Shown: positions 15,804-50,564 of the stretch, piece by piece
How positions within the stretch are numbered: the stretch's first letter is position 1
Layout of the letters: the number at the start of each line of letters is the position of its first letter
From: Elusimicrobiota bacterium
Lineage (GTDB): Bacteria; Elusimicrobiota; Elusimicrobia; JACQPE01
Length of the DNA stretch: 64,000 bases
Direction of reading: 5' to 3'
Assembly (NCBI GenBank): GCA_042563375.1
Contig: JBHPMF010000007.1
Location: forward strand, 218-64,217
Notes under the pieces: model-generated
Database searches by the model: none
What the model was told of the DNA's origin: nothing
The model's input: the letters and a program-made list of their open reading frames with translations, nothing else
Program-made: the position numbers and the translations under genes

Positions 15804-16607
15804 ATGAGCAATATCAAGGATAATAAGATTTCATCATTCAGCGAAGCAGTCCTGTGGTATTTCCCACGGGGCATCATTCATCATTCATCATTATTTACGG
15901 GCATCTGGGTTGTTGCGAAAAAGGATTTTCGCGAGATGATCAATTCCCCCATAGCTTATGTGCTTGGGGTCATATTCATGCTTGTCACAGGATACTTCTT
16001 TGCCCAGCCTTTATTCGTGATGAAGCAGGCTAATATCGCGCCGCTCATGGACATCGTGCCTATGATCCTTGTTTTCCTGGTTCCCGCGGTCACCATGCGG
16101 TCATTCGCTGATGAGCACAAATCAGGCACATTCGAGATACTCGCCACCCTGCCGCTGAATACTTACGAGATAGTGATCGGGAAATATCTGGCATGCGTTG
16201 CTCTTATCAGCTCTGTGTTCATGCTTACGTTCATCTACCCTGTAATGCTCGAGATCCTGGGAGAGCCGGACTGGGGAGCGGTCTTTGGAGCTTATTTCGG
16301 GCACATCTTTCTTATAGCAGCCCTGGCTTCCATCGGCATATTCATATCCAGCCTGACCCGCAATCAGGTAATAGCGTATCTTGGAGCCTGGATGATAGGG
16401 TTCATATTCTTCATGGCAGGCAAAACTCTTATGTTCTTCCCTTATCCCATCTCAGAGATCCTTAATTTCATCGGTTTTGACGCGCACATGGAGAACATCA
16501 GCCGCGGAGTGCTGGATTCAAGGGACCTGATCTACTTTTTAAGCCTGGCTGCGCTCTTCCTATGCCTGCCGCTTATAAAGATCGAGGCGAAGTTGCGCGC
16601 AAAGTAA
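15804..16607 (+). CDS. ABC-2 permease (GldF-like); repeat-derived N-terminus
   Basis: SPIAYV, PAVTMRSFADEHKSGT.E.L.T.P, GKY, SSLT.NQ.IA, RGVLDSRDLIYF. Confidence 0.88.
   Translation: MSNIKDNKISSFSEAVLWYFPRGIIHHSSLFTGIWVVAKKDFREMINSPIAYVLGVIFMLVTGYFFAQPLFVMKQANIAPLMDIVPMILVFLVPAVTMRSFADEHKSGTFEILATLPLNTYEIVIGKYLACVALISSVFMLTFIYPVMLEILGEPDWGAVFGAYFGHIFLIAALASIGIFISSLTRNQVIAYLGAWMIGFIFFMAGKTLMFFPYPISEILNFIGFDAHMENISRGVLDSRDLIYFLSLAALFLCLPLIKIEAKLRAK
15839..15873 (+). mobile_element. CA-flanked GCGAAGC micro-element within TTCATCA heptamer array
   Basis: CA-GCGAAGCAGTCCTGTGGTATTTCCCACGGGG-CA; removing 33 nt restores the TTCATCA period. Confidence 0.6.
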
Positions 16608-16666
16608 TGTTGAATTACACGCGAATAATACACGAATGAACACGCGAATTAACACGAATAAGAAAG

Positions 16667-18277
16667 ATGATCACTAAGCTAAATGGATTGATACAGAGGT
16701 TCTCGAGCTCCTGGATCGGAGCTGTGAGCGCGATCATCATGTTCCTTATAATGGTGAATCTGGCAAGCCAGCAAATATTTATGCGCCTGGATCTGTCCGA
16801 AGGAAACATATATTCCCTGTCCAAAGCCACTAAAAAAATGGTCAGGGAACTCGCAGACCCTGTTATCGTCAAATGCTACTTCAGCAAAGGCCTTGCGCAG
16901 CCCTATTCAAGCCACAAGGATTATCTGCGCGACATTCTAAGAAGCTATAAATCCTACGGCGGGAGTAATTTTGAATATGAATTCGCGCATGATCCCGACC
17001 CGGAAGTTTTCAAGCGCAAAGCCATAAAAGCAGGCGTTGCTCCTGTAAGGCTCACGGTGATAGCTAAGGATAAATACGAGGTCAAGGAAGGATTCATGGG
17101 GCTTGTGGTCCTTTTTGGAGATAAAAAGGAAACCATCCCCCTTATAAGGAACATTGACGGCATAGAATACGATATCACAAGCCGCATCAAGAAAATGACA
17201 ATGGAAACAACGTCTTCCATCGGATCTATAAAAGGAAAAGGCAATGAGGACCTGCCGGATGGGATCAAAGGGAACATACTGGAAAGATATAAGATAGAGG
17301 AAATATATCTTGCTGACAAAACAAGCATCCCGGATGACATGAAAGCGCTTCTGGTGCTGGGTCCCCAGGAAAAATTCAATGACCATGAAAAAGCGCTTAT
17401 CGAACAGCAGGTGCTTAAAGGCATCCCAACAGCTTTTTTTGTGGATACAAAAAAAGTGGATATCGAAAGCGGCATGTTCTCGGTCAGAGACATAGCCCTT
17501 GATCTTAACCCGCTTTTCCTTAAATGGGGCATTAACATCAAGCCCGCAGTAGTTCTGGATGCACAAAGCCAGAATGTATCGATCCAGCAGCAGATGATGG
17601 GGTTTCTTATGAACACGATCGTGAGTTACCCGCTTTTCCCCATAGTAACGAACATGGATGAGGTTAATCCGATCACAAAAGAACTGGACCAGATAGTGTT
17701 TCCATTCGCCGCGCCGATAAGCACGTCACCGGTAAAGGGCATCGAACATACAGTGCTTGTCAGATCAACAAGGCAATCGTGGTCAAAGGACAAGCTCTTT
17801 AACGCTTCCCCTCTTGCAAAACATATGAACCCGTCAAGGAATGACCCGTTAGGACCGTTTTCCATGGCAGTGATCGCACAGGGTAAATTCGATGCTCTGT
17901 ATACAGAACCGCCGCAAGCAAGCACATCAACGGCCTCATCCCTGCCCAGCGACTGGCTCGCCAGGACAAAAAATATCAGCCGCGTGATCGTGTGCTCGAC
18001 CTCAAGATTGATCGACCCCCGTTTGCCGATCTCCCAAAGCAACCAGACTTTCTTCCTTAATGCTCTTGACTGGCTCACCCAGGATGATGCCCTTATAGCC
18101 ATACGTTCAAAAGGAGCGAAACTCAGACCTTTCACATGGGCGCCCGAATACGCCTCCAGACAGGCCATAAAACTCTCCTCGATTCTTCTTATGCCGATCC
18201 TTACGATGCTCGCAGGCGTTGGAAGGTGGCAATATAGGAAGAGATGGAAAAGGAAGATAGTAAAGAAATTTATATGA
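16667..18277 (+). CDS. GldG-family ABC auxiliary component
   Basis: RLDLSEGNIYSLS..T, IEYDITSRI, N..FFLNALDWL..DD.LI.IRSK, C-terminal TM. Confidence 0.88.
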   Translation: MITKLNGLIQRFSSSWIGAVSAIIMFLIMVNLASQQIFMRLDLSEGNIYSLSKATKKMVRELADPVIVKCYFSKGLAQPYSSHKDYLRDILRSYKSYGGSNFEYEFAHDPDPEVFKRKAIKAGVAPVRLTVIAKDKYEVKEGFMGLVVLFGDKKETIPLIRNIDGIEYDITSRIKKMTMETTSSIGSIKGKGNEDLPDGIKGNILERYKIEEIYLADKTSIPDDMKALLVLGPQEKFNDHEKALIEQQVLKGIPTAFFVDTKKVDIESGMFSVRDIALDLNPLFLKWGINIKPAVVLDAQSQNVSIQQQMMGFLMNTIVSYPLFPIVTNMDEVNPITKELDQIVFPFAAPISTSPVKGIEHTVLVRSTRQSWSKDKLFNASPLAKHMNPSRNDPLGPFSMAVIAQGKFDALYTEPPQASTSTASSLPSDWLARTKNISRVIVCSTSRLIDPRLPISQSNQTFFLNALDWLTQDDALIAIRSKGAKLRPFTWAPEYASRQAIKLSSILLMPILTMLAGVGRWQYRKRWKRKIVKKFI

Positions 18278-18280
18278 AAT

Positions 18281-18378
18281 ACAGCAGACAGCACACAGTA
18301 GACAGTAGACAGGGAATATGCAGAATGGATATTCCTTTTTTATCTTTCCTGTATGCTGTATGCTGTCTACCGTCTACT
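18281..18378. repeat. CAG(T/C)AGA heptamer-periodic inverted repeat element
   Basis: Left arm ACAGCAGACAGCACACAGTAGACAGTAGACAGG, right arm CCTGTATGCTGTATGCTGTCTACCGTCTACT. Confidence 0.75.
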
Positions 18379-18385
18379 TCTTTTT

Positions 18386-19333
18386 ATGTCGTCTAAAACT
18401 GTCAAATTCCTTTTTATCGGCGCTCTTGCCCTTTTCACGCTCTTTGCGGCGCTCAAAGCAGGGAAAATCGTGTCAAAAAAATTCGCGAAAAAACCTCTGG
18501 CTCTGGATTCCGCGAAATTCAAAACAGCGCTCAGCTTTGTTACTATCGAGAAACATGGCGCCAAACCCATAAAACTCGCAAAAGAAAATGATGGCTGGGT
18601 TATCAGGGAACCCGAAATATTCGCCTGCGACAAGGATACGATCGAAGGCATTGTAGATGACCTTGCTAATTCAAACATCGAGCATAAAATATCAAGCCGC
18701 AAGGAATCATTCTCAAAATTCGGGCTCACTGACAAGAAGGCCATTAAAGTGACAGCCGATGATGCTCAGAAAAAGCATTTACTGCAGATACTCATAGGGG
18801 ATCAGATAACAGGATCAGCGGATGAGGTTTATATGAGATATCCGGATAAAAGCAGATCCTATATTATAAAGGGGATCAGAAGATTCACGTTCGACCAGGA
18901 AACAAAATACTACAAAGACCGCTTGATCGCAAAGATCGCGAACAATGATGTTTCGCAGATAATAATCTCGCTCCCGGGCAAGCAAGCTGTGAAGATGATC
19001 AAAGATGGCGAAGATTGGAAGATCAAAGACAAAGCAGTTCTAAAAGATAAAGTTCTCTCGATCCTGAGCACTCTTGAGGTTTTTGAGGCGACTGACTTTC
19101 CAGGATCGATCGACCTGGAACCGGGGATCAACGCCTTAGGCCTTGGAGACCGGCCTGAAACAGCCTTGGTATCAGTCACGGCAAAGGGCGCGCAAACAAT
19201 ACTGCGCATAGGAAAAAAGAAACAATCTCTTTACTATGTCAAGCTTGATAACAAGCCCACGGTCTGGCTTGCGGCTCAATGGAAGATCAAGCCTTTACTG
19301 ATAAAAGAGAAAGACCTCCTTCCCAAAGACTAG
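18386..19333 (+). CDS. DUF4340-like periplasmic protein (Gld ABC cluster)
   Basis: N-terminal TM, two repeated units (W.I..P...D, FGL, L.IG, Y.R); position after gldG-like gene; start chosen downstream of repeat. Confidence 0.7.
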   Translation: MSSKTVKFLFIGALALFTLFAALKAGKIVSKKFAKKPLALDSAKFKTALSFVTIEKHGAKPIKLAKENDGWVIREPEIFACDKDTIEGIVDDLANSNIEHKISSRKESFSKFGLTDKKAIKVTADDAQKKHLLQILIGDQITGSADEVYMRYPDKSRSYIIKGIRRFTFDQETKYYKDRLIAKIANNDVSQIIISLPGKQAVKMIKDGEDWKIKDKAVLKDKVLSILSTLEVFEATDFPGSIDLEPGINALGLGDRPETALVSVTAKGAQTILRIGKKKQSLYYVKLDNKPTVWLAAQWKIKPLLIKEKDLLPKD

Positions 19334-19427
19334 TTAATAAGTCGATAAGTTGATAAGATGATAAGGAAACAGTGGAATATTTTTATTTACCGACATCCCA
19401 ACGCGTCAGCGCATCATTTTTCTTGAT

Positions 19428-20438
19428 ATGAGCGCAATTATCCTTGATGGAAAAACCCTGGCAGCGAAGATACGCCGGGATATAGGGAGAGAAACCGCTC
19501 CTCTTAAGGAAAAATACAGCAGGGGCCCGGGGCTTGCCACAGTGCTTGTGGGAGAAGACCCGGCAAGCGCGATATACGTAAGAAACAAGATAAAAGCATG
19601 CAGCGAAGCAGGCCTGGCCACGTTCGACCACAAGCTGGCCCAAGACACACCCGAAAATGAACTCCTAAGGATCCTGGATGATCTTAATGCCAATGATCAG
19701 GTGGACGGCATCCTTCTTCAGCTTCCGCTTCCAAAACACATCAATACGCCCAAAGCCGTTGGCAGGATAAAAACAGAAAAAGATGTTGACGGGTTCGGTC
19801 CTGAGAATTTCGGGAAATTATACCAGGCAAAATCTATTTCAGAGCTGGATGATATTTTTATCCCTTGCACTCCACAGGGGATCTTAAGGCTCATAGAGCT
19901 GGCAGGAGTGAGTATTGCGGGCAAATTCGCCTGTGTCATAGGCAGATCGAACATCGTGGGAAAACCCATAGCGCATCTGCTCATGCTTTCCAACGCCACC
20001 ACTGTGATATGCCATACGAAAACAGGCAATCTGAATGAACTAGCCGCCATGGCTGACATTATCGTGTCCGCCACAGGCAGACTGCATAATGTCACAGCCT
20101 CAATGGTAAAAAATGGAGCATGCGTGATCGATGTGGGCATGAACCGCAAGCCCGACGGAAAACTCGCCGGAGACTGCGATTTCGATGATATAAAAGAGAA
20201 GGCCGGCTCTATAACACCAGTACCCGGCGGAGTCGGCCCGATGACGATCGCGATGCTTCTGTCTAATACGCTAAAAGCTTTTAAACACGCTAACTGCCCG
20301 GGCCATTGCGAGGGCAAAGCCCAAGGCAGTCCCAAAGGGCAGTCCTGTGCGAAGACAGCGAAGCAGTCCCGTGTATTTCCACGGGGCACAGGGCAAGATC
20401 AAAAGTACGAAGGCCTGAAGCAACAGGAAAAAACTTAA
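19428..20438 (+). CDS. folD: Bifunctional methylenetetrahydrofolate dehydrogenase/cyclohydrolase with repeat-derived C-terminal extension
   Basis: LVGEDPAS.IYVRNK, GILLQLPLP, KDVDG, PCTP.G, GRSNIVGKP, ITPVPGGVGPMTIAML. Confidence 0.95.
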   Translation: MSAIILDGKTLAAKIRRDIGRETAPLKEKYSRGPGLATVLVGEDPASAIYVRNKIKACSEAGLATFDHKLAQDTPENELLRILDDLNANDQVDGILLQLPLPKHINTPKAVGRIKTEKDVDGFGPENFGKLYQAKSISELDDIFIPCTPQGILRLIELAGVSIAGKFACVIGRSNIVGKPIAHLLMLSNATTVICHTKTGNLNELAAMADIIVSATGRLHNVTASMVKNGACVIDVGMNRKPDGKLAGDCDFDDIKEKAGSITPVPGGVGPMTIAMLLSNTLKAFKHANCPGHCEGKAQGSPKGQSCAKTAKQSRVFPRGTGQDQKYEGLKQQEKT

Positions 20439-20456
20439 TTAAGGAGAACTTAACAC

Positions 20457-21335
20457 ATGGCAAAGTATTATTCACCGGATGATGATGATAATGAGAAAGG
20501 AGGAGGAGGAGGCCGCGGTTTCCAACCGCCCCCGCAATTCGTGTTCGGAGCTTTTGGAACAGCTATCGCTCTTTTCATAGCAGCTATTATCCTGTTTAAA
20601 TGCGTAATCTCCGTTCCGGCGGGATATATAGGCATCAAGGATATGTTCGGAAAAATACACGATGATGTCCTGCAACCGGGAATACATCTGATAAATCCGC
20701 TATACAAAGTCCATAAGTTGAGTATCCGCACCCAGGAGATAAAAGAAACAGCGAATGTGCCATCAAAAGAAGGTCTGGTTGTAAAACTCGAGATATCATT
20801 ACTTTTTAGCCTGGACCCCACCAAGGCCACCCAGGTATACAAGACACTGGGTCCGGGATATGTGACAGTCGTGGTCGAACCCACGCTGCGCTCAACAGTA
20901 CGAGGAGCCACAGCAGGCTATGAAGCAAAAGCCCTATACACATCAAGCCGCGAAGCCATCGCTAATGCCATGTCAGAGCAGATAAAACCCGTACTCGCAA
21001 AGCGCGGAATCAGCGTGGAAGCGATACTCATGAGAAGCATCGAACTCCCCCTGATACTCTCCACAGCTATTGAGAAAAAACTTGAAGCTGAACAGCAAGC
21101 CCAGCAGATGAAATTCGTGCTTGAACGCGAAGAAAGAGAAGCTGACAGGAAAAAGATCGAAGCCCGCGGTATATCGAACTTTCAAAAGATCGTGAGCTTA
21201 GGAATAAGCGAGAACCTCTTACGCTGGAAAGGCATAGAAGCCACAAAAGAGCTCGCAGTAAGCAATAACAGCAAAGTCGTGGTAATAGGCGCAGGAAGAG
21301 ACGGCCTTCCGATCATTTTGAATACGAACAAGTAG
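20457..21335 (+). CDS. SPFH/prohibitin (band 7) family protein
   Basis: N-terminal TM, PG.H...P, SKEGL.V, AIEKK..AEQ.AQ, EA.RK.IEA.G. Confidence 0.88.
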   Translation: MAKYYSPDDDDNEKGGGGGRGFQPPPQFVFGAFGTAIALFIAAIILFKCVISVPAGYIGIKDMFGKIHDDVLQPGIHLINPLYKVHKLSIRTQEIKETANVPSKEGLVVKLEISLLFSLDPTKATQVYKTLGPGYVTVVVEPTLRSTVRGATAGYEAKALYTSSREAIANAMSEQIKPVLAKRGISVEAILMRSIELPLILSTAIEKKLEAEQQAQQMKFVLEREEREADRKKIEARGISNFQKIVSLGISENLLRWKGIEATKELAVSNNSKVVVIGAGRDGLPIILNTNK

Positions 21336-21355
21336 ATAGCAGATGGTGATTCTTC

Positions 21356-22588
21356 TTAGAGTTGCTCGCCGGTGATCTTTCTGAAAAAAGACTTGATTTT
21401 GAATAAGAGGGATTTTTTCTTTGGTTTTTTCGGCAAGCCTTTGAATCTTCTTATATGATCATCGAGGCTGGGTTCGCCTGCCTTGCCTGCCCTAAGCGTA
21501 GTCGAAGGGAACGGGGCTGAAGAAGGATTCGCGCTTTTTCCGGATTTCTTTATAATTTTCTTTGCTTTTTTCGTTTCAGCCTTCTTCATCCTCGCTAATT
21601 GCTTCTTGCTGAAGAATCCGGGTTTTTTGCCGAACGGAACATGGAAGGATACCCTGTGCGTGAACCCCAGATCAGGCATGGGCACAACAGCATAATCAAC
21701 ATCACTACCCAGGAGCTTCAACCTGAACCCCACAGCTGCCTTGTCAGGATATTGATATCCAAGCCTCCAGATAAGAGGCGTCCAAAAATAACTTTTGCTC
21801 ATTCGAAACGGGATATACTCGATCCCCGTGTTCCAAACAGGCTTTCTGCTGCCCGGTCCTGTTTGAGGTTTTTGCACGTCAGCCACAAGAGCCATTGATC
21901 CGGTGAGCATGAAATTAGCTCCGAAATTAAGAGTTGTGGGAAGCGAGAAGGATTCATTCACGAACTTCATGGAATTGCCTTTGTTCTTTAAGGCCACGCC
22001 AAGAGTCAATCTTGACCAGGCTTGAGCTAATACGCCGAAATCAAAAGCCCTGCCTTTTGCTTTTGCATCATCAAGCCTCATCTCGATCTGCTTTGCGCTC
22101 GCGCCAATGGAGAGCCCGGGATAGACTTCCCATGCCAAAGATGCTGTTATGGCCCTGTCTTCGCTTTTAAAATATCCTGTTTGCCTGCCCTGGTCATCCC
22201 TTCTCTCCAACGGATCCATGCCGAGCGAGCGCATGCCGCAAGCAATGGTCTGCCTGCGATTGATCCTCTGCGCGAATCCGGCGAAATTCTCAACAATATC
22301 AGCTACCCATCTGTTCTGAGCCGCAACAAGGTCAGCCGCGGGGATCTGGGAGAGTCCGGCAGGATTGTAATGCAGGGCTGTGGCATCATTGGCCATTGCC
22401 GTAAAAGCTCCGCCCATGCCAAGAGGGCGCGCGCCCACGGGGATCTTTAAGAAAGCTGCGCCTACCGGCTCATTGGCAGACAAAGTGAAAAGTGACAAGT
22501 GACAAGTGAAAAGTACAAACAAGCAAAAAAGAAACGCCCTCTTTCCTTTTGCCTTTTTCACTTTTTTCACCTTTGTCACTTTTTTCAC
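21356..22588 (-). CDS. PorV/PorQ (UPF0164)-family outer-membrane beta-barrel protein
   Basis: AAFLKIPVGARPLGMGGAFTA.ANDATALHYNPAGL; GTG start at 22588 inferred, followed by signal peptide; basic C-terminal tail. Confidence 0.8.
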   Translation of the reverse strand: MKKVTKVKKVKKAKGKRAFLFCLFVLFTCHLSLFTLSANEPVGAAFLKIPVGARPLGMGGAFTAMANDATALHYNPAGLSQIPAADLVAAQNRWVADIVENFAGFAQRINRRQTIACGMRSLGMDPLERRDDQGRQTGYFKSEDRAITASLAWEVYPGLSIGASAKQIEMRLDDAKAKGRAFDFGVLAQAWSRLTLGVALKNKGNSMKFVNESFSLPTTLNFGANFMLTGSMALVADVQKPQTGPGSRKPVWNTGIEYIPFRMSKSYFWTPLIWRLGYQYPDKAAVGFRLKLLGSDVDYAVVPMPDLGFTHRVSFHVPFGKKPGFFSKKQLARMKKAETKKAKKIIKKSGKSANPSSAPFPSTTLRAGKAGEPSLDDHIRRFKGLPKKPKKKSLLFKIKSFFRKITGEQL

Positions 22589-22593
22589 TTTCT

Positions 22594-24372
22594 TTACTTT
22601 AAAATTGCCATTTTTTTGACTTTTTTCATCTTGTCGCCTGTGATCTTGTCCATGGATCTTACCATGTAGAGATAAACCCCGCTTGAAAGAGGGAATCCGT
22701 TCGCGTCTTTTAAATCCCATTCATATTCATACACAGGAGCATTGTGTTTCGGGATGCTTGTATCCTCTATTTCCTTTACAAGCTCGCCTGCGATATTGAA
22801 AATCTTGATCTTGAATTTTGGGGACAAATACCAGGTTTTAACATGAAAAGTCGCTTTATCGCCTCTTGCCGGATTGGGATAACTGTACACCTCAAACGGA
22901 GGTTTTTCTATGGCTGTCACAGTCGGGCCCTGCGTAGCGGATGTAGGCTCTCCTGTGGCAGGCGAACCCCACCTGTCCTTTGCCTCAAAATAATATGAAT
23001 ATGTGCCGTCTTCAGGAACAAAGGCGTTTGCTTCAAATACGGTCTTGCCCGGAACATCCTCTGAAAGGAAGCTCATGGCGAATGGACTGCCTTCGATCTC
23101 CTCATCGTCTTTACTTATGTGGACCTTGGGATACCCCCCGAGCACAGGATCCGAGTCCGGATCTTCATACGTGACCCTGAAAACATACGATGTATAGGTG
23201 TTTCCTTCCTCCGGGTCAAGGCCGTCATTTAAAAAAGGCTCTTCCCCTACCCAGCTGAGCACGGGAGCATTCGTGGTACGCGCGTATTTCAAGTCGCCTG
23301 CGATCCAGTCAAGATACGCGATATGCGCCTTGTTGCCGGAATCGATCGCAAGGCACACATGCCAACTTTCAAAATCACTTACCGAGACCACTTCCTTTAT
23401 CCAGGATGATCCTGACCATTTGGCGTATTTAAGCTTTTCTTCTTTTACGCTGTAATAAGCGATCGCAGGCTTGTTCGCGGAATCCAAAGCCAAAGACGTG
23501 AATTCACCCACATCTCCGTCAGCATCCACGATCCCTTTCTGCCATGTTCCGCTTTGATTCGTGGCGTAGCGCAGATCCTGCTGTGTTGAGTTCTGATACG
23601 CGATGTGCGGCTTGTTATTAGAATCGAGCCTGAGCGATGAATAGTATCCTGTGAAACCCTCTGAGTCGATCACTGAGATCTGCCAGGTTGAACCGGTTTT
23701 TTTCGCGTATTTTAGGTCAGCATTGATCCAGTCAAGGTAGGCGATATGAGGCTTATCCGAGCTGTCAAGCTCAAGAGAAGCGTATTGACCCACATCAGTA
23801 TCCGAGTCAACGGTCTCCAGATCCCAGACCCCGGGTGAAATGCGCACAGCGTATTTTAAGTCCATGTTGGTCAAATCCTCATATGCCACATGGGGCCTGC
23901 CTCCTGAGTCTATCTCTATCGAGCTGTACAGGCCGGGACTGCCCTCGCTCGCGATCGTTTCCTTATGCCAACCCCCAGCGTCCCTGTAAATATAAAGCAG
24001 ATCCTCTTCCGTGAAATCAAAATAACTCACATGCGGATTATCATCGGAATCAAGCGCAAGGGACGGGGTCCCGCCCACAAAACCGCTGTTATCGATCGTA
24101 ATGGCATGCCATGAATTTCCGTCAAAGCTCGCGTATTTAAGGCTTCCATTCTCCCAGTCATTGTATACGATGCAAGGCATTCCGCTTTTATCAAGCGCAA
24201 GCGATGGATTCCACCCGGTATCCCCCTTACTGTCAACCGTGACAGAACCCCAATCAGCATGAAGAATGGGCACCAGGATAAAAAGATACACAGGCAGGAA
24301 AATCAGAAAAATAATCAAAAAAACAGGGTGCTTTTGAGGCGCAGGTTTTCGGTTTTGCATATTCAATGTCAC
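22594..24372 (-). CDS. Secreted beta-propeller repeat protein with FlgD-Ig/T9SS-like C-terminal domain
   Basis: About 7 repeats VD..G.VG..SL.LDS...PHIAY.D....LKYA; C-terminus YSYPNPARG...IKIFNIAGELVKE...WDLKD.NG..LSSGVYLY. Confidence 0.8.
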   Translation of the reverse strand: MTLNMQNRKPAPQKHPVFLIIFLIFLPVYLFILVPILHADWGSVTVDSKGDTGWNPSLALDKSGMPCIVYNDWENGSLKYASFDGNSWHAITIDNSGFVGGTPSLALDSDDNPHVSYFDFTEEDLLYIYRDAGGWHKETIASEGSPGLYSSIEIDSGGRPHVAYEDLTNMDLKYAVRISPGVWDLETVDSDTDVGQYASLELDSSDKPHIAYLDWINADLKYAKKTGSTWQISVIDSEGFTGYYSSLRLDSNNKPHIAYQNSTQQDLRYATNQSGTWQKGIVDADGDVGEFTSLALDSANKPAIAYYSVKEEKLKYAKWSGSSWIKEVVSVSDFESWHVCLAIDSGNKAHIAYLDWIAGDLKYARTTNAPVLSWVGEEPFLNDGLDPEEGNTYTSYVFRVTYEDPDSDPVLGGYPKVHISKDDEEIEGSPFAMSFLSEDVPGKTVFEANAFVPEDGTYSYYFEAKDRWGSPATGEPTSATQGPTVTAIEKPPFEVYSYPNPARGDKATFHVKTWYLSPKFKIKIFNIAGELVKEIEDTSIPKHNAPVYEYEWDLKDANGFPLSSGVYLYMVRSMDKITGDKMKKVKKMAILK

Positions 24373-24404
24373 AACTATTCTACTTCAGCCGCTCAGGGTC
24401 ACTA

Positions 24405-24444
24405 TAGGACTAAAGTCCTAATTTTAATTGGGACCTTAGTCCTA
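24405..24444. promoter_or_regulatory. Tandem palindromic operator-like sites between divergent genes
   Basis: TAGGACTAAAGTCCTA (24405-24420) and TGGGACCTTAGTCCTA (24429-24444). Confidence 0.4.
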
Positions 24445-24640
24445 CAAGAAAATTCACTCTCTATGAGATAATTGATTCAGGTGCATGCCCTACGGGCGTA
24501 CCAAAATAACAGAAGTCACCGTCCTTGAGCAAAGCGAAAGGGCCGGACATGTGCTTGGATCATCCCTGAATCAAGTTCAGGGCAGGCTCTGAGCGGACCC
24601 GATATTAATCGGGGAAGTCGAAGGATCTCAAGTAAGAAAT

Positions 24641-25144: not shown

Positions 25145-25157
25145 TAAGGAGGCTGAC

Positions 25158-26210: not shown

Positions 26211-26342
26211 GAGGTGAAAATATGGAGATAAGGTACAGCGAAGCAGTGCCATCCATTGTTATAGAGGTGAAAATATGGAGATAAGGTACAGCGAAGCAGT
26301 GCCATCCATTGTTATAGAGGTGAAAATATGGAGATAAGGTAC
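26211..26342 (+). repeat. 53-bp tandem repeat triplicating the gcvH RBS/start region
   Basis: GAGGTGAAAATATGGAGATAAGGTAC at 26211, 26264, 26317 with identical 27-bp spacers AGCGAAGCAGTGCCATCCATTGTTATA. Confidence 0.9.
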
Positions 26343-32518: not shown

Positions 32519-33706
32519 TTATTTCTTCTTATCGGAGACTCTTTTCTTGGGGTAGAATGTAAACCTGAAATTCAGATGCCCCAAAACATCATATCCCCTT
32601 GAATATTTAAGATAAGCCAGATCAAAATTAGCATGAAGAAAGCTGCCAACCTGCGCGTTCACCAGGAATGGCTTTGATTTGGCATTTCTCGGTTCGATCA
32701 TCTCAATAAAAAAAGCAAGCTTGCGAGACACATTCAATTTCAGGCTGTAGAATATGCCGACATTGGACTCTGACTCTTTTGAAAGGAATTCCGTCAAGTA
32801 AATGATCTTTGAAGGAGAACTTCCGCGCATAAGCCCGACGCTCGGTTTTAAGAACCAGAACTTCTTGCTTGCCACGCAAAAAAGACTGTTAAACGGCCTG
32901 GAACTTTCCTTTCCAACTTTAAATTGAAATGTGGGATTGGAGAGACCCGGGGCTTTTGTGTCTCTGAGCATATAAGAACCGTCTCCTCCGATCGCGAGCT
33001 GAGGAATGAATCTGCGCTCTTTCTCGAGTATTATCTTGCCCTCAAGCTGGATAAACCACACGCCGACACGCGTGAAAAGACTTTTTCTCCTGTTTGTTAT
33101 TTCCGAAAGCCTGTTATAGCTGTATAAGCGGCCGATATAATAACTTGTGACGATGTCTATATTCATGGGGAATAACGTCCCATACTCGCTATACGGCGAA
33201 TCGTATATAGGCACCCTGCGATACGCGGACGGCGTAAGCATGACACCGGAAAAAGGCATCTCAGCCACTTTCCACTTCTGCCAGTAAGGCTCGGAATACG
33301 CTATTACATCGCCATTGCGGTTTACAGCGCGTACATGGTAATAAAAAGTCTGCCCTGTCTCGGTTTTTGTGAAGTAATCCTTATGCCAATCATGGTAATA
33401 CGGATACTTGACAGACTGAGAGCTGGCCTCAATGGCATGCTCCCTGGGAATACTGGACCGGATAACAAGATAATGCTCGATCTTGCGCTTGAGCTTTCTT
33501 TGAGCGTCAAAGCGCAGTACAATGCCGCGGACAATGCCCTCTGCGGTCATTTCGAACGTCGCCGTTGGCGTCGCGCCGAATAATTGTGTCTGCGCGACAA
33601 AAACCAACAATAGCACACCAAGTACTAATTTTGAATTTTGCCCAGCTTTTACCGGACTGCTTCGCTGAATTTTGAATTTTGAATTGATGTAAAGACTTAT
33701 CTTCAT
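32519..33706 (-). CDS. Hypothetical exported protein (FN3-like region plus probable beta-barrel)
   Basis: Signal peptide, FYYHVRAVN, amphipathic C-terminal strands; no firm family. Confidence 0.6.
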   Translation of the reverse strand: MKISLYINSKFKIQRSSPVKAGQNSKLVLGVLLLVFVAQTQLFGATPTATFEMTAEGIVRGIVLRFDAQRKLKRKIEHYLVIRSSIPREHAIEASSQSVKYPYYHDWHKDYFTKTETGQTFYYHVRAVNRNGDVIAYSEPYWQKWKVAEMPFSGVMLTPSAYRRVPIYDSPYSEYGTLFPMNIDIVTSYYIGRLYSYNRLSEITNRRKSLFTRVGVWFIQLEGKIILEKERRFIPQLAIGGDGSYMLRDTKAPGLSNPTFQFKVGKESSRPFNSLFCVASKKFWFLKPSVGLMRGSSPSKIIYLTEFLSKESESNVGIFYSLKLNVSRKLAFFIEMIEPRNAKSKPFLVNAQVGSFLHANFDLAYLKYSRGYDVLGHLNFRFTFYPKKRVSDKKK

Positions 33707-36564: not shown

Positions 36565-36566
36565 AC

Positions 36567-41968: not shown

Positions 41969-42104
41969 CTCATGTTTTAGCAGTTAAATACCGACGAATG
42001 AGTATATAGAAGTTTTGAATTTGATTGCTTGACTCGGCACTCAACACTCAGTACTATTGTTTTTTTCAGAGGAATAGTTTGCTTAAGATAGTGTTTGCGT
42101 TGCG

Positions 42105-42368
42105 CTATTTCAGATCAAAATCGCAAGCAATCTTTTCATACGCAGGAGAATCCGTTCTTTTTATGTATTTAAGCAATGCCCTTCTTCTGCCTACTAGCTT
42201 GAGCAGGCCACGACGGGAAGAATGGTCCCTTTTAAACCCTTTTAAATGTTCGTTCAGCATCTCTATGCGCCTTGTCAAAAGCGCGATCTGGACAGCAGCT
42301 GAACCTGTGTTTGTGGGTTCGGGCGAATATCTCCGAACGATTTCTGATTTCATTTTTTTATCTAACAT
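42105..42368 (-). CDS. rpsO: 30S ribosomal protein S15
   Basis: NTGS..VQIALLT.RI..LNEHL....DHSSRRGLLKLVG.RR.LL.Y. Confidence 0.96.
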   Translation of the reverse strand: MLDKKMKSEIVRRYSPEPTNTGSAAVQIALLTRRIEMLNEHLKGFKRDHSSRRGLLKLVGRRRALLKYIKRTDSPAYEKIACDFDLK

Positions 42369-43644: not shown

Positions 43645-43646
43645 TA

Positions 43647-44477
43647 TTAACCGGCTATATCTATTAAACTTCGCTCTAAATCTTCTACAGAATTAAGGTC
43701 AGTAAGCGAGGCACTGTCCCCTATATTATACCTTCCTACAGCCTCTCTTGTCAGGTCCTCAAGGTAGCCGATCGTACCCAAACTAAGCGCGAAATCACGC
43801 GCTAAGCTCCTCAGATATGCGCCCTTGCCCACAAGAGCCTCAAAATAAACCCTGGGATGCTTATAATCCAATATCCCGAACTCATAAATATTGACTTTTC
43901 TGGGAGGAATCTCAGGAGTTTCCCCGTTGCGAGCCAGTTTATAAAGCCTCTTTCCCTTGTAATGCAGGGCGCAATATAAAGGGGGCACCTGATCGATCTC
44001 ACCCAAGAACTGTTGCGCTTTTTCTTTAAGTTGCTTTAAGGTAAATGCAACGGCACAATGATGATGCGATGAAGATGGAGAAGCGAAACCCTCTTTTCTC
44101 ATCATCTCATCATCTCCTGATCTCGTTATTATTCTTCCTGTTGGATCCAGAGTATCGGTCGTCTCGCCCAGAAAGATCGTTCCTTTATATCGCTTTTTTG
44201 TATCAGTAAAATCAGAAAATCTTTTTGTGACTTTTCTTCCCAGCATAATAAGCAGAACCCCGTTCGCGAAGGGGTCAAGCGTGCCGGCGTGGCCCACCTT
44301 CGGGCAATGATGATGGGATGATGCGATGACGGGATGATGCGATAAAGAGGAATCCTCTGGGGCTCTCTTTCTCATCATGCCATCATCGCATGACACCCTC
44401 ATCACTCTCTTGATGTGGCGTATCACATCATATGAAGATATGCCCTTGGGCTTATTTACGTTTAGAATTCCTTCCAT
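43647..44477 (-). CDS. truB: tRNA pseudouridine(55) synthase with two in-frame palindromic insertions
   Basis: GILNVNKPKG.SS.DV, KVGHAGTLDPFA.GVL, TDTLD..G, QVPP.Y.A....G.RLY.LAR, KG.YLRSLARD. Confidence 0.93.
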   Translation of the reverse strand: MEGILNVNKPKGISSYDVIRHIKRVMRVSCDDGMMRKRAPEDSSLSHHPVIASSHHHCPKVGHAGTLDPFANGVLLIMLGRKVTKRFSDFTDTKKRYKGTIFLGETTDTLDPTGRIITRSGDDEMMRKEGFASPSSSHHHCAVAFTLKQLKEKAQQFLGEIDQVPPLYCALHYKGKRLYKLARNGETPEIPPRKVNIYEFGILDYKHPRVYFEALVGKGAYLRSLARDFALSLGTIGYLEDLTREAVGRYNIGDSASLTDLNSVEDLERSLIDIAG

Positions 44478-45459
44478 GTTCAATGCTTTTTTTAAATTGT
44501 TTGACAATCATCCGCTCAATACTGTCCATAGAAGTGTTTTTGATCTCAAAGCCCGCGGCGTTTCTGTGGCCGCCGCCATTAAACGCCCTTGCCACCTCAG
44601 ATACGTCAATGCGGCCTTTTGACCTCATCGATACTGATGTGATGCCCTTTCCCCTGAAAGGCTCCTGTTTGAACATAAAAGTGGCTTCCACGCTCTCCGG
44701 AGATAATCCGTAATTCACTATATCATCCGTATCAGCGGGCTCAGGCGCATGGCGCAGGAAGTCCCGTTTTGAAAGCCGCATGCAGGATAATTTCCCGGAT
44801 ACATGGAACTTTATCCCATTAAGAGCCTTGGCCAGGAGTTTCAGATGGCCGATATTCTTTGAGGCGAACATCCTGTTGTAAATCTCCGTATGCTTCACCC
44901 CGGCCTCAAGAAACCCGGCTGCGATCCTGTGGGTAGCCGCAGAAGTAAGCGCATATTGGAAGCACCCGGTATCCGACACCATGCCGGCATAAAGCCATGT
45001 TGACTCCTTGACCGACGGCTTGATCCTCAGATGCTCATAGAGCCTGTATATCTGCTCTGCGTTTGAAGATGCCTTGGGATCGATCCAGTTCACATCAGCA
45101 AAACACCTGCTTGTCTTATGGTGATCGATATTAACGGTTGTCCTGAAATGATTCTCGTATCCGATATTCCCGGCCCTGCGCTTATTGGAGCATTCCAGAA
45201 ATATCGCGCATTCTAAGCCTTGGCAGTCTTGAACAACAGCCGGTGCGATGATTTTTTCTTTGCCAACCATAAATCTGATATGCGGCGGAACAACCGTGGT
45301 GCTGGCAACAATGATTTTTCTTCCCGGACCAAGCCGCCTGATAAGGCTGGCCATGGCAAAGGAGGATGCAAGGGAGTCAGCATCAGGCTTGATATGCCCC
45401 ATGATGGCAAAACTCTTACAAACCTTCAGTATCTTGCAGATACGTTTAATGGGGTCCAT
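44452..45459 (-). CDS. nrnA: DHH-family phosphoesterase (NrnA-like)
   Basis: H..PDADS, NIDHH, SDTG.F, S.RS, FNGGGH.NAAG. Confidence 0.9.
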   Translation of the reverse strand: MDPIKRICKILKVCKSFAIMGHIKPDADSLASSFAMASLIRRLGPGRKIIVASTTVVPPHIRFMVGKEKIIAPAVVQDCQGLECAIFLECSNKRRAGNIGYENHFRTTVNIDHHKTSRCFADVNWIDPKASSNAEQIYRLYEHLRIKPSVKESTWLYAGMVSDTGCFQYALTSAATHRIAAGFLEAGVKHTEIYNRMFASKNIGHLKLLAKALNGIKFHVSGKLSCMRLSKRDFLRHAPEPADTDDIVNYGLSPESVEATFMFKQEPFRGKGITSVSMRSKGRIDVSEVARAFNGGGHRNAAGFEIKNTSMDSIERMIVKQFKKSIEHGRNSKRK

Positions 45460-45526
45460 TTATATCCGGTCAACACAAGGGAGGCGAGAATTCTTTATCA
45501 TTCGTGTTTAATTCGCGTTCTCAACA

Positions 45527-45922
45527 TCAGAAATTATCTTTTTTCAGGTTCTCGATTATCGTATATACCCTTTCGGCTGATTGCGGATTTTGATCGTATT
45601 TGAATCTTAGTTTCGGTAAACGCTTCATGGTAATGCGCTTGCTTAAATAACGGCTGATATCGGGATATATCTGCTTGAGGGTCAGGTTGAGTCTTTCTAC
45701 TATATCTTTCGAATAATCCTCGTCAGCCATAGCGTTCCGGCCTTCTTTAAACAGAGAATAATAGACATCAGCGAACTCCAGGCTTTTAACAACAACAACC
45801 TTTGTTATGGTCATTACATGGCCGTCTGCCGCATGAAGTATCGTATCCTGGTATTTTTCCAAAATGATCGCTATTTCAGTCGTAAAAAGGCTTGAGAGTC
45901 TTTCTTGTCGATTCGGAATCAT
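45527..45922 (-). CDS. rbfA: Ribosome-binding factor A
   Basis: R.ERL, TIT.V, A.VY.S, KR.PKL.F.YD; position after infB. Confidence 0.85.
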   Translation of the reverse strand: MIPNRQERLSSLFTTEIAIILEKYQDTILHAADGHVMTITKVVVVKSLEFADVYYSLFKEGRNAMADEDYSKDIVERLNLTLKQIYPDISRYLSKRITMKRLPKLRFKYDQNPQSAERVYTIIENLKKDNF

Positions 45923-46075
45923 GATCTTAAAAAATGCTAAAGATAGAGAAAACACAGGGCTAAATTATGAATGCTAAAAACAACAGAAGATTTCTTCATT
46001 CTACGCTTTTCTTGTTTTCGTTCTTTCATTCAGCATTTAGCCCTTGATTTTTTTATTTAGCGTTATTTGCTATGC

Positions 46076-48355
46076 TCAGGTTTTGCTCAGCCTCTTGAGC
46101 TCCTTGACTTGCGTGAAATAGACGATAAGGTCGCCTTTGCGCACATTATTGAAACCATTCACATTCAATCCGCATTCAAAACCCGCTGTCACTTCGTTAA
46201 CATCATCTTTGAATCGCTTCAGGGTTGAAACCTTGCCTTCAAAGATATCCTTGCCGTCTCTTCGAACTTTAACGACCCCGCCCTTCACGATCTTGCCGTC
46301 TTTGACAAGACACCCGGCAACAGAACCGATACCCTTTATTGTAAACGCCTGCTTCACTTCAGCAGAACCCAACACGTTTTCGCGGATGATAGGCGCAAGC
46401 ATCCCTTCCAGGGCTGAACGGATGTTGTCGATCATCTCATATATCACCTTGTACAGCGTGATCTCAACATCCTGCCTTTTGGCTTCTTCCTCGGCCCTGG
46501 GGTCAGTTTCAACATGAAAGCCCAGGATAATGGCGTCACTGGCTGCGGCAAGCAGAACATCCGAAGGAGTTATTGTGCCAAGATTGCTGTGCAAGACCTT
46601 GATCACGACTTCCTTATGATGCAATGCTGAGAGCTCGCTTACTATAGCTTCGAGCGACCCGCTTGTGTCAGCGCGTATGATCATGCGAAGCTCTTTGACC
46701 TCTCCTGATTCTATCTTGGAATGCAGGTCCTCAAGGGTCAAATGTTTGCTTCTCATTTTTCCATGGATAACCTCAGCTTCAAGCTTTCGCCTTGAAGAAA
46801 GCTCTCTGGCCTGCCTTTCGTCGTTTACAGCTATAAATTTATCCCCGGCTTCACAAAGCGCGTCAAAACCCAGCACCTGGGCGGCATGCGAAGGTCCGAT
46901 ACTGATCTGCCTTGTTCCATGCTCATCGATCAGGGCTCGCACTTTCCCTGATGCCAGACCGCAAATAAACGCGTCTCCAACTTTTAAGGTACCTTCCTGT
47001 ACAAGAACCGTGACCACATTGCCCTTTCTCGGATCTTTTTTCGCTTCTACCACAAAGCCGACTGCTTTTCTCTTTGGGTTGGCTTTTAGCTCCAGCATCT
47101 CGGTCTCAAGAAATATGATCTCAAAAAGTTTATCCAGATTCAGCCGCCTCTTTGCTGAAACTTCCACTATGCTGGTTTTTCCCCCCCAATCCTCTGATAC
47201 CAGATTATATTTGGAAAGCTCTCGTCTTATTTTGCTCACATCAGCAGTAGGCAGATCAACCTTGTTTATCGCCACAATGATCGGCACGCCCGCTGCCTTG
47301 GCATGATCGATAGCCTCAACAGTCTGCGGCATAACAGCGCTGTCCGCTGCCACAACAAGCACAACAATGTCTGTTACCTTGGCGCCGCGCGCGCGCATGG
47401 CTGAGAACGCTTCATGGCCCGGAGTATCAAGGAAAGTGATCGAGCCCTCAGGTCTTATGACCCTGTAAGCGCCTATATGCTGGGTTATCCCCCCGACTTC
47501 CGACTCAGCGACCCGTGTTTTACGGATCACATCAAGCAATGTCGTCTTACCATGATCAACATGCCCCATAACAGTGACAATGGGAGCCCTGCGCTCAAGC
47601 GCTGAAGCGTTTTCATCTTCAGACTGAGCTGAAATAAGCTTATCCTCATCAAAGCCCCGCGACACGCTTACCACGAATCCATATTCAGAGGCAACAACAC
47701 CTGCCACGTCCGCATCAAGCCTCTGGTTGATGGTAGCCCATACTCCAAGACCCATAAGCTTCTTTATAAGCTCGGGAATACCAATACCGAGCATCTGCGA
47801 GAATTCCTTCACTGTCAGATGCGGTGTGATCGAGAGCTTCTTTTTCGGGGGCGGAGGAGGCTTTACAGGTTCAGGCTTGCTCGGCGGCCTGGGAGCTTGC
47901 GGCTTATAAGACTCTTTGGGCGCAGGCTCAACAACAGGCGGTTTTACCTCTTTCTCTACGGGCAATTCAGGCGCAGACTTGGCCTGCAATGAAGCCCTCT
48001 CGATCATCTTGGGAAGTTCTGCCTTTTGCAGGATCCCCCTGAGTCTTGCGGCTTGCTCTGCTTGTGCAGCATCAAGACCGGCTTTTTCAGATCCTTTTTC
48101 CTTGGAAATCTCTTTTTGGACTCTTGGCTTGCGCCCAACGCGTTTTTTGGCCGGCTCCTTCATAATAGCAGCTTTTGCCGGTTTCTCGGCTTTTTCTTTT
48201 GGCTTAGGCTTAACGGATGCAGTCTTCTTCGGCGCTCGCGGCTTCTTCGGCTTTTCCGTCTTCTTTACGATTGAAGCTTTTCCATCAACCCTCTGCCTAT
48301 CTTCGCCTGATTCAGATTTATTTTTAAGTGTTTTCTTTTTTTTCTTTATTTCCAT
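46076..48355 (-). CDS. infB: Translation initiation factor IF-2
   Basis: [61 protein letters not shown]. Confidence 0.97.
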
Positions 48356-48375
48356 ATTAAATTTTCAACTTCCTA

Positions 48376-49458
48376 TTATTCTTTTGTTTCTTGCTCCGGA
48401 ACTTTCGCCGGCGCAACAGCCTTGATCGATTCAACTGTCAGGTTCCAGCCGGTGAGCTCCGTAGCCAGGCGCATATTGACCCCTTCTCTGCCTATAGCCT
48501 GCGCTACCTGATCCTCAGCGGCAAAAACAATGGCTGTATTCTTTGACGTATCCTCGATCTCAACCCTGTCAATCTGCGCCGGAGCAAGACTTGCGCGAAT
48601 TAAATCCTCTACCTTCTCGCTGTGTGATATCAAATCTATCTTCTCTCCGCGCAATTCACTTATCACGGGACGGATCCTTGTCCCCTTTATGCCTACACAA
48701 GCTCCGACAGGGTCCACTTTTGGATTCGCGGTTTTAACAAGAACCTTGGTCCTGAAACCAGCCTCCCTGACGACCTTCACGATCTCAATGGTACTATCAT
48801 GCACTTCAGGAACCTCAAGATTGAGAAGTCCCTTGACGAACTCGGGGACCGCCCTTGATAGATACACTTGAGGCCCTTTCTGCACGGATTCAACAGCCCT
48901 TACAAGAGCCTTAATGACCTCCCCTATCGAGAATCTCTCTCCGGGTATCTGTTCTTCTTTTCTGAGAACCGCTTCGATCTTGCCAAGGCTTACATATACG
49001 GATTTATCCGGGCCAAAACGGTAAACAGATCCTGTTACGATCAGATTCTCTTTTTTCTTGAAATCCTTGAATAAACTTTCCTTTTCAACTTCCCTGAGCT
49101 TTTGAAGGATCACCTGCTTGGCTGTTTGCGCGGCTATTCGGGAAAAATCAGCGGTATCCATGGCTACGGGCACTTCATCAGAGAGCTTACTCTCGGGTGA
49201 TATTTTTTGAGCTTCAGATAAAGCTATATCAGTATATGGGTCTGTAACGCCCTCAACGACCTTTTTGATTATAAAAGCGCGCGCTTGCCCGGTATTAGCG
49301 TCCATCTCTGTTTTTACAGGAACTTCTCTGCCGATATGCTTGAAAATAGCAGACGCCACAGCGCTCTCGATGAGACGCAGGATCTCCTGACGGGGAATGC
49401 CCTTATCACGCTCGATCGTCTCAAGAAGAAGCACGAATTCTGTCTTACCGGAACTCAT
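48376..49458 (-). CDS. nusA: Transcription termination factor NusA
   Basis: F.RIAAQTAKQVI.QK, LSR, EVPE, REAG.RTK, DPVGAC.G..G.RI, EL.GEKID, AIG.EG.N.RLA..LTGW. Confidence 0.96.
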   Translation of the reverse strand: MSSGKTEFVLLLETIERDKGIPRQEILRLIESAVASAIFKHIGREVPVKTEMDANTGQARAFIIKKVVEGVTDPYTDIALSEAQKISPESKLSDEVPVAMDTADFSRIAAQTAKQVILQKLREVEKESLFKDFKKKENLIVTGSVYRFGPDKSVYVSLGKIEAVLRKEEQIPGERFSIGEVIKALVRAVESVQKGPQVYLSRAVPEFVKGLLNLEVPEVHDSTIEIVKVVREAGFRTKVLVKTANPKVDPVGACVGIKGTRIRPVISELRGEKIDLISHSEKVEDLIRASLAPAQIDRVEIEDTSKNTAIVFAAEDQVAQAIGREGVNMRLATELTGWNLTVESIKAVAPAKVPEQETKE

Positions 49459-49588
49459 ACGGATTCCTCGCGAATAAGACGCGAATTATAAAGACACGCC
49501 ACAAAACCAAGAGCCCCCCCACCCAATCTCCCCCACCAAGGGGGAGGAGAAAAAAGGAGATTCCCATTCGCGTTCATTCGTGTAGTCT

Positions 49589-50044
49589 TCATAATTTCGG
49601 CTCCAAATTCGCTCTCGCGATATCCTCAAAAGGCACTTCAGCATTACTGCCTTCAATCCCAAGCGTTACCACTGAACCGTTAACTCCATAAATATTTGCT
49701 ATGGCCACATTGTCCTTTATACATGCCGGAGGCTTTCTGAATACCGCCCTGATCTGCTTGCCAACGAACCTCCTGTAATCATCAATGCTCTTAAGCGCCC
49801 TGTAAATACCCGGGGAAGAAACCTCGAGCACATAAGGCCCCTCAGTCGGATCCTCCTGATCAAAGGCCTGGCTGATGGACCTGCTCACCTTTTCGCAATC
49901 ACTAAGACTCACGCGCTCTTGAGGGTCCTTTTTCTCAATGTACACTCTCAAAACTTTGCGCTTCCCCTCAGACCCGAATTCATGCCCCATAAAGCAATAA
50001 TCCATGCTTTCAACGGACGTTTTTAAGAACTCTTCAATGTTCAT
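49589..50044 (-). CDS. rimP: Ribosome maturation factor RimP
   Basis: LRVYI.K, DCE.VSR.IS, Y.LEVSSPG. Confidence 0.92.
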   Translation of the reverse strand: MNIEEFLKTSVESMDYCFMGHEFGSEGKRKVLRVYIEKKDPQERVSLSDCEKVSRSISQAFDQEDPTEGPYVLEVSSPGIYRALKSIDDYRRFVGKQIRAVFRKPPACIKDNVAIANIYGVNGSVVTLGIEGSNAEVPFEDIARANLEPKL

Positions 50045-50242
50045 AAGTAAATATAATGCGTCCCCTACCGGAGACGTATTATATGCATCCCAAACTTGAT
50101 CCGGGATCCAGATTCTTCATCCAGCATATTCCCAGAGCTAAAGTCCGAGTTCTGATAACCGGATTTACAAATTCCAGCATTTACATAAAAAGGTGAATTC
50201 TCTTTATTGCTGACTGAACCTTGATTCAACCATTAAAACAAA

Positions 50243-50269
50243 AAGGGCGCTCTTATGCAGAGCCCCCTT
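50243..50269 (-). promoter_or_regulatory. Terminator-like leader hairpin upstream of rimP
   Basis: Minus strand AAGGGGGCTCT-GCATA-AGAGCGCCCTT followed by TTGTTTT. Confidence 0.5.
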
Positions 50270-50330
50270 CCCTTATATCTAATATTTTATTATATTTACC
50301 TAATCAGAAACAGGGGTAAGCAAAAGCATA

Positions 50331-50403
50331 GGGCCCGTAGCTCAGTTGGTAGAGCATCCGCCTTTTAAGCGGGTGGCCGCGCGTTCGAGTCGCGCCGGGC
50401 CCA
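50331..50403 (+). tRNA. tRNA-Lys (UUU), CCA not encoded
   Basis: GGGCCCG acceptor stem, TAGCTCAGTTGGTAGAGC D arm, anticodon loop CT-TTT-AA, GTTCGAGTC T arm. Confidence 0.95.
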
Positions 50404-50564
50404 AATATAAGCAAAAATGCTAAATTCTAAAGTATAAATGCTAAAAATAAGGAAATCTTTATTATGGCAATTTATACGTTTTCTTGATTTATTTACATTT
50501 AGCCCTCAGCAAAGCAGCCCTATGGCATGCCCCACAGGGCATAATTTAGACCTTCTATATGCTG

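Follow-up and report, generated by a model that had tools for sequence, protein, structure and literature searches.

Repeats of a few tens of nucleotides are usually dismissed as non-mobile, the one described case being the small dispersed repeats (SDRs) of Nostoc, which were reported only from one cyanobacterial family. Elhai and colleagues reportedly described SDR4-6 in 2008 from Nostoc punctiforme and other Nostocaceae as dispersed units of about 21-27 nt, and conserved parts are said to surround a variable hairpin in these units, which are also said to be nested in tandem heptamers and in each other. To our knowledge, the mode of their movement has not been established since then. Two larger kinds of DNA share single features with such repeats. 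IS1397 and ISKpn1, complete insertion sequences that encode a transposase and duplicate their target, insert specifically into the loops of repetitive extragenic palindromic (REP) or palindromic unit (PU) hairpins, and the Rickettsia palindromic elements (RPEs) of about 100-150 bp, restricted to Rickettsia, are read through in frame inside genes. In regard to the insertion site of SDRs, SDR5 is stated to insert between bases 3 and 4 of HIP1 (PMC4390886), and according to a second source, HIP1-rich cyanobacteria outside Nostocaceae were found to contain no SDR-like repeat (PMC5861425). In this study, we analyzed a repeat of about 30 nt, here called the micro-element, in a window of 64,000 nt from an Elusimicrobiota bacterium (GCA_042563375.1), which corresponds to positions 218-64217 of contig JBHPMF010000007.1 (C159; the genome is labelled G000 and its contigs C1, C4, C90, C159 etc.). 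The assembly comprises 2.97 Mb in 180 contigs with a G+C content of 47% and a completeness of 68%.

The micro-element is best read as a unit of an 8-nt prefix, CAGCGAAG, followed by CAGYCC-stem-loop-stem-GGR, with a length of 33 nt in most parsed copies (window copies in Table 1). It was inserted as DNA without target duplication at T^YA, in at least five kinds of host, and it very probably represents inserted DNA that was formerly or is currently mobile. As with SDRs as described, its copies measure tens of nucleotides and are dispersed, combine conserved parts with a variable hairpin, lie inside heptamers and one another, and are precisely inserted into host palindromes. In contrast to SDRs, it belongs to another phylum (Elusimicrobia, sporadically elsewhere), is slightly longer (27-34 nt), has the loops of GTAG-tagged REPs as main hosts, and carries a different head, which is not multicopy in 61 cyanobacterial genomes; SDR1-8 were compared by description only. 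The nearest described class is the SDRs of Nostocaceae, with head and phylum differing here. Compared with that class, the present case is cleaner, since exact boundaries (CAG...GGR), a defined target (T^YA) and filled as well as empty hosts are found side by side, the 14-nt head is common to families and even phyla, and the list of candidate single-strand enzymes is short.

Genome-wide, the exact 12-mer GCRAAGCAGYCC of the head occurs 49 times. Allowing up to one mismatch, the window contains 8 matches compared with 1.55 expected, a number that was reached in none of 100 shuffles, and the four full copies listed for the window in an earlier sequence-only reading were all recovered at their places, far above chance. 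The two truncated heads proposed in the same reading did not hold up, as both lack a hairpin and lie inside a 53-nt tandem repeat, and their 15-mer is absent elsewhere in the genome, so that membership in the family was not shown. Two further one-mismatch matches at 19603 (within folD) and 14680 were rejected, since they have no hairpin and look like chance. Admitting G or A at two head positions led to 73 heads, consisting of 52 of the GCGAAGC/GCAAAGC/GCGGAGC type and 21 of a sister type, GCAGAGC. The counts of lengths and of dinucleotides after GGR given below rest on 39 parsed copies. Their lengths were 33 nt (24 copies), 31 nt (5), 30 nt (3), 27 nt (3) and 34 nt (2), and single parses of 25 and 24 nt look like chance matches.

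The position of the insertion was deduced from both ends. A CA precedes 46 of the 52 heads, with TT (35), CT (6), GA (4) or CG (1) in front of it, and in other Elusimicrobia genomes this CA is always kept while the bases upstream of it vary, so that it belongs to the micro-element. At the other end, the dinucleotide after GGR was TA in 16, CA in 14 and another one in 9 of the parsed copies. It is host-derived and tracks the type of host: the 19 copies in REP loops revealed TA (14), CA (2) and CT (3), and the 20 copies elsewhere CA (12), TA (2), CG (2), AA (2), AT (1) and CT (1). A promoter-like motif that also serves as host occurs 14 times in the form GCCCT^TATAAT, compared with 2 occurrences, in unrelated contexts, of the form that would be needed if insertion took place after TTCA. 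Based on this count, the constancy of the left CA and the host-dependent right dinucleotide, the unit sits between T and YA without target duplication. The alternative boundary, with insertion after TTCA and an element ending in YA, was rejected because it needs the rare CATAAT host in three of three cases and leaves the right dinucleotide unexplained. The flanking CA had been taken for a duplicated target, which is contradicted by these counts; the impression of a duplicated CA arises because the element itself begins with CA and three of the four hosts in the window happen to continue with CA.

The micro-element has entered sister units, Ssn-type hairpins, heptamer arrays, the promoter-like TATAAT motif and GTAG REP loops. 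The last of these hold about half of the copies; for this abundant GTAG-tagged REP, 263 strict and 366 relaxed heads were counted, and it is also present with empty short loops (85 of the TTTA type and 38 of the TTCA type). Heptamer hosts are TTCATCA, AAAATTC and GCCCTCA arrays at unrelated genes, and the flanks of the heptamer-hosted copies are likewise unrelated genes. In the window, removal of the insert restores the TTCATCA array around copy 1, the AAAATTC array around copy 3 and the outer hairpin unit around copy 2, as had been stated before, and three further TTCATCA arrays at unrelated loci carry an insert of like kind. Copy 4, for which a tRNA gene lies some 100 nt upstream, is lodged between a run of TTTAGCCCT heptamers and a CATAAT box; together with two other copies it splits the promoter-like module exactly ahead of the TATAAT box. 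This module, in which TTTAGCA/TTTAGCC heptamers are followed by TATAAT and then TTAGCCC, was observed at 50490-50560 of the window, at C1:113000 and on C79, C94 and C107. Ssn-type hairpins of the form GTCATTGCGAG...CAATCTCAA number 84 in the genome, five of them with micro-units inside.

Nesting is common. The genome holds a set of chained and nested units, which all start with CAG and end with GGR, and at the deepest point 211 nt of such units fill one REP loop. Copy 2 gives an example in the window: together with the outer unit it revealed a predicted 75-nt fold (z = -2.69), excising it rejoins the outer hairpin unit (20340-20355 plus 20387-20393), and chains like that of the 13-nt mini unit and the outer unit are found elsewhere in the genome. 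CAGYCC followed by a hairpin was detected 129 times compared with 65 times in the reversed genome, the commonest prefixes being GCGAAG (32), GCAGAG (19) and AGCAGG (13), which together make up most of the real ones. Composite heads probably represent short pieces of host trapped between two CA sites. With uninterrupted hosts abundant in the same genome and nesting this frequent, the proposal of an extremely small element inserted into other repeats and into sister units was borne out. Around one insert variant, at C139 (minus strand, position 5872) and C167:8966, the left and right arms of the REP belong to different REP subtypes, which suggests recombination between REPs at the insert.

Hairpin pairing is kept by compensatory changes. 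DNA folding predicted the hairpin, including pairing of the G in CAG with the Y after GGR, with modest single-sequence z-scores of +0.5 to -2.8. Forty-five copies share a layout of 8 pairs and represent 33 distinct hairpins, in which 97.3% of the cells were paired; 1000 column shuffles reached 94.3% at most and 91.7% on average. Compensatory changes are found at pair 7 (G-C 21, A-T 9), pair 5 (G-C 21, A-T 4) and pair 8 (G-C 30, T-A 2), and further copies are built on quite different palindromes. The left boundary lies 10 nt before the hairpin foot. As to the head, a study on such structures describes GCGAAGC as a very stable DNA mini-hairpin with a melting temperature of 76.5 °C, reports that such hairpins bind SSB poorly, and observed no melting transition for the related 8-mer GCAAAAGC (PMC13037366). 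A search of Rfam at the copies matched no family, the tRNA listed in Table 1 being the sole match.

In other genomes, a patchy spread across families was found. Within the class, 24 of 393 genomes contain the 14-mer CAGCGAAGCAGYCC, which has 41 copies in the genome under study; four of the 24, from three other families, contain 10, 7, 7 and 3 copies, and the reversed 14-mer as control gave about a dozen hits over the 393 genomes. In these other families, the hairpins behind the head and the local repeats around it are different ones. When the genomes of all species were scanned for the head with a downstream GGGCA, at least 119 matches in at least 118 stretches were obtained; 13 among the matches listed had a stem of at least 5 bp, and most were single chance hits. 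Follow-up of five hits identified a Chloroflexota metagenome-assembled genome (MAG) with 5 copies and a Pseudomonadota MAG with 3 copies, each in local hairpin repeats, those of the Pseudomonadota MAG sitting in a host palindrome. In the Chloroflexota MAG (G395, loci L160-L164), the head forms the joint of 20-nt tandem copies consisting of the 5' arm and the CAGCGAAG linker inside a GTAG REP, and the unit after the linker starts with CAG where the REP itself has TAG. Among cyanobacteria, the 14-mer head was found as single hits in 7 of 61 genomes of one order, that of a Calothrix MAG, and was multicopy in none, which is chance level.

Several copies alter genes. Copy 1 adds 11 in-frame residues to an ABC-2-type permease open reading frame (ORF; 15804-16607), within its N-terminal tail; all six orthologues from the family (64-70% identical) lack the array and the insert, and they align only from query residue 10-37 on, five of the six from residue 26 or later. 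The folD gene gained a C-terminal tail of 50 residues through the chain of micro-units that includes copy 2. This tail is absent in six of six orthologues from the family, which end 5-15 residues past the conserved K-A-W/F-K motif. Copy 3 is read in frame as part of a 395-aa ORF, where it falls in the N-region of the signal peptide, and it and its twin on C99 add the same peptide to this region of two unrelated proteins. The 60-nt module of array plus insert, together with a 24-nt block upstream of it, starts both of these unrelated secreted proteins, which share a 22-residue N-terminus. Thus, the inserts alter proteins by 9-11 residues at N-termini and by a 50-residue tail in FolD, and where 33 nt are placed directly before a TATAAT box, promoters are possibly altered as well.

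As noted previously, both copies that encode part of an N-terminus keep the reading frame, with lengths of 33 and 27 nt. Lengths are multiples of 3 in 5 of 5 copies inside long ORFs and in 25 of 32 others (37 parsed copies, leaving out the probable chance hits on C120 and C155), which is no clear difference; an in-frame length is a property of the family and not an outcome at each site. All six frames are open in 12 of 37 copies; for shuffled copies the share is 11% and for 33-mers taken at random from the genome 6%, a mild effect. The six heptamer-hosted copies are all sense-oriented and lie just ahead of or within gene starts.

We tentatively favor, at a level of confidence just short of an even one, a family of DNA micro-elements, 27-34 nt long, non-coding and non-autonomous, with a conserved head, a variable hairpin and GGR, which are inserted at T^YA and moved by a single-strand enzyme. 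On this reading, a trans-acting enzyme would read the head and hairpin on single-stranded DNA, cut just 5' of CA(G) and just 3' of GGR, and the piece would be rejoined at another N^YA site, in a reaction resembling the peel-and-paste of IS200/IS605 and that proposed for REPs and REP-associated tyrosine transposases (RAYTs). Use of a ^CA further upstream as left cut would explain composite heads such as CAGTCT-CAGCAGAG-CAGTCC. The targets are sites probably exposed as single strands, namely heptamer arrays, sister units (in their loops or stems) and the loops of hairpins of the REP and Ssn types. Once inserted, some copies would multiply together with the host repeat, and part of the copy number probably stems from such co-amplification or from conversion. 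That a single-strand hairpin enzyme is responsible at all we hold to be as plausible as its opposite; that it is an HUH-Y1 protein in particular is possible, though doubtful.

Similarities to known single-strand systems are partial. In common with IS200/IS605 and the palindrome-associated transposable elements (PATEs) derived from it, insertion takes place beside a short motif without duplication (T^YA), a hairpin would be recognized, and a single-strand logic fits the targets; in contrast to them, there is one main hairpin instead of a left/right pair, the length is 30 nt instead of hundreds, and neither an IS200-type TnpA with matching ends nor TnpB was found in this 68%-complete genome. Features shared with REPs or REPINs and RAYTs are a short tag plus hairpin with compensatory changes, many copies, HUH-Y1 genes in the genome and a proposed action on single-stranded DNA, while the tag is CAG after an 8-nt prefix and not GTAG (GT[AG]G), no REPtron is present, and the unit inserts into REP loops and occurs in coding regions. 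Insertion into the loop of REP hairpins is shared with IS1397/ISKpn1, without a transposase gene or target duplication, and translation in frame inside genes with the RPEs, which are longer and confined to Rickettsia. A miniature inverted-repeat transposable element can be discounted, since the ends are CAG.../...GGR without terminal inverted repeats and there is no target-site duplication.

First candidates for the enzyme would be two RAYT-like HUH-Y1 (Y1_Tnp) proteins with a DnaA_C-like C-terminal domain, encoded at C159:67-1062 and C4:3959-5032 and 25% identical to each other, one of which scores 84.6 bits at an NCBIfam cut-off for REP-tyrosine transposases of 80 bits. A gene of this kind bounded by the motif, as suggested earlier, was looked for in vain, since the flanks of both Y1 genes are devoid of the micro-element. 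Among ten other element-bearing genomes, Y1_Tnp was detected in seven, compared with 203 of 393 genomes of the class; this comparison is not informative.

A number of observations weigh against the favored reading. Y1 homologues occur in the said 203 of 393 class genomes and the micro-element in 24, and three of the ten other element-bearing genomes (G007, with 7 copies, G019 and G396) gave no Y1_Tnp match. The combination of Y1 and DnaA_C corresponds to subclass 2.1.2 of Quentin et al., who found no neighboring REPs for it (bioRxiv 10.1101/279083). Copy 4 carries the head GCAAAGC, whose related 8-mer GCAAAAGC gave no melting transition, so that the mini-hairpin may not be essential. Strand choice relative to GC skew is only 30 to 16, in 46 copies that are not independent, and no presence/absence polymorphism within a species was seen, the relatives found in metagenome contigs being only 35-40% identical at the protein level. 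Furthermore, the hairpin subtype goes with the type of host, which fits copying along with the host, and the 60-nt module recurs with 98% identity at C99:8221-8280.

The last two points are at the same time the basis of the first alternative, namely passive spread after a few founding events, in which copies would have been made by homology between host repeats (gene conversion, template switching) or by amplification together with the REP, without transposition of their own. That the two 98% identical modules start unrelated genes, that several REP-plus-insert composites are near-identical, e.g., on C13, C24 and C90, and that REP arms of different types surround one insert variant as on C139 and C167, suggesting recombination at the insert, are all in line with it. 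What makes this explanation unlikely as a whole is that at least five unrelated classes of host were entered, always at N^YA, that REPs differing in stem type share hairpin variants while a single REP type holds different ones, and that the same 14-nt head was encountered in further families and phyla together with different hairpins and hosts.

A second alternative, which we consider distinctly improbable, involves an Ssn-like single-domain GIY-YIG nuclease that would process the micro-element and leave the joining to host repair or replication. According to a recent study, Ssn nucleases are encoded by small GIY-YIG genes flanked by inverted NTS-type hairpins and bind hairpin repeats on single-stranded DNA, which SsnA cuts a few bases upstream of the hairpin (Chenal et al. 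2025, PMC11893778). The genome under study revealed 8 GIY-YIG matches, including two closely similar single-domain genes of 98 aa (C90:40738-41034 and C167:4397-4693), each bracketed by inverted GTCATTGCGAG...CAATCTCAA hairpins, a form resembling the published NTS motif. A cluster of micro-units lies about 130 nt upstream of the gene on C90, five hairpins of this family contain micro-units, and a cut upstream of the hairpin would correspond to the left boundary of the micro-element. In contrast, the micro-element itself does not carry the GTCATT-palindrome-AATC tags of NTS and Ssn-related motifs, which here belong to another hairpin family that it parasitizes, and it does not flank any Ssn-like gene. 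GIY-YIG enzymes hydrolyze DNA and are not known for strand transfer, and the proteins found here are putative members of the Ssn clade (cd10448), the only hit being a weak match to a UPF0213 structure.

It is very unlikely that the hairpin is a functional site, i.e., a protein-binding site or RNA structure kept in place by selection, and not mobile DNA. The conserved compensatory pairing, the uniform sense orientation of all heptamer-hosted copies at gene starts and the three copies directly before a TATAAT-like box would agree with such a function; they are opposed by the mixture of locations, which comprises sites upstream of a -10-like box, where transcription is improbable, 5' regions, N-termini and a C-terminal tail of coding sequences, and intergenic REP loops, as well as by the lack of any Rfam match and by orthologues without the insert. 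RNA-mediated copying is hardly credible, for although three RVT_1 reverse transcriptase genes are present, two of them adjacent (C54:1123-3287, C96:523-1173), copies are found upstream of -10-like boxes and in either orientation to genes, where they would hardly serve as templates, poly-A or priming signatures are lacking, and no link to these loci, themselves uninspected, was seen.

Returning to micro-elements moved by a single-strand enzyme, a wider version can be formulated, to which we attach rather little confidence. It would comprise a cross-phylum family of CAG-headed single-stranded DNA micro-transposons of about 30 nt, cut by an enzyme at N^YA on both sides of the head and hairpin and living as parasites of GTAG REPs and Ssn-type hairpins. 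As part of this speculative version, use of an upstream ^CA would capture neighboring bases, and gene starts, gene ends and promoters would be rebuilt in passing. If true, these cross-phylum units would be among the smallest mobile DNAs known.

Table 1. Copies of the micro-element, their hosts and further features in the 64,000-nt window
Feature	Position (nt)	Strand	Description
Copy 1	15839-15871	+	33 nt; head CAGCGAAG + CAGTCC-hairpin-GGGG
Host TTCATCA heptamer array	15830-15892	+	Split by copy 1 between T (15838) and CA (15872)
Copy 2	20356-20386	+	31 nt; nested at loop/3' arm junction of outer unit
Outer sister unit	20340-20393	+	CAGTCC-stem, GAA-type loop, stem-GGG; interrupted by copy 2
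13-nt mini unit (CAG + TCCC-loop-GGG)	20327-20339	+	Chained immediately ahead of outer unit
folD ORF	19428-20438	+	Final 50 residues translated from micro-unit chain
Copy 3	33641-33667	-	27 nt; hairpin CCGGT-AAAA-GCTGG
60-nt module (AAAATTC array + copy 3)	33627-33686	-	98% identical module starts unrelated gene on C99
Copy 4	50507-50539	+	33 nt; head variant GCAAAGC
tRNA gene	50331-50403		Rfam, 73 bits
Perfect tandem repeat, 53 nt x 2.5	26211-26342	+	Two head-like 15-mers (26236, 26289), no hairpin
RAYT-like gene, 3' part	1-845	+	Y1_Tnp + DnaA_C-like helix-turn-helix; 331 aa; start 151 nt before window (C159:67)
GTAG-tagged REP hairpin	11586-11609	-	Empty loop CTTTAG; uninterrupted form of commonest host
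GTAG-tagged REP hairpin	11339-11362	-	Empty loop CTTCAG

Two further observations concern the remaining repeats of the window. The ribosome-binding site of the following gene is duplicated in the 53-nt tandem repeat, as are its start codon and first five codons. On the minus strand at 11375-11497, an inverted pair of NTS-like hairpins of the GTCATCCC...GGGATGAC type with no gene between them is flanked by two GTAG REPs, and this pair, lacking a gene, appears related to the GIY-YIG cassettes.

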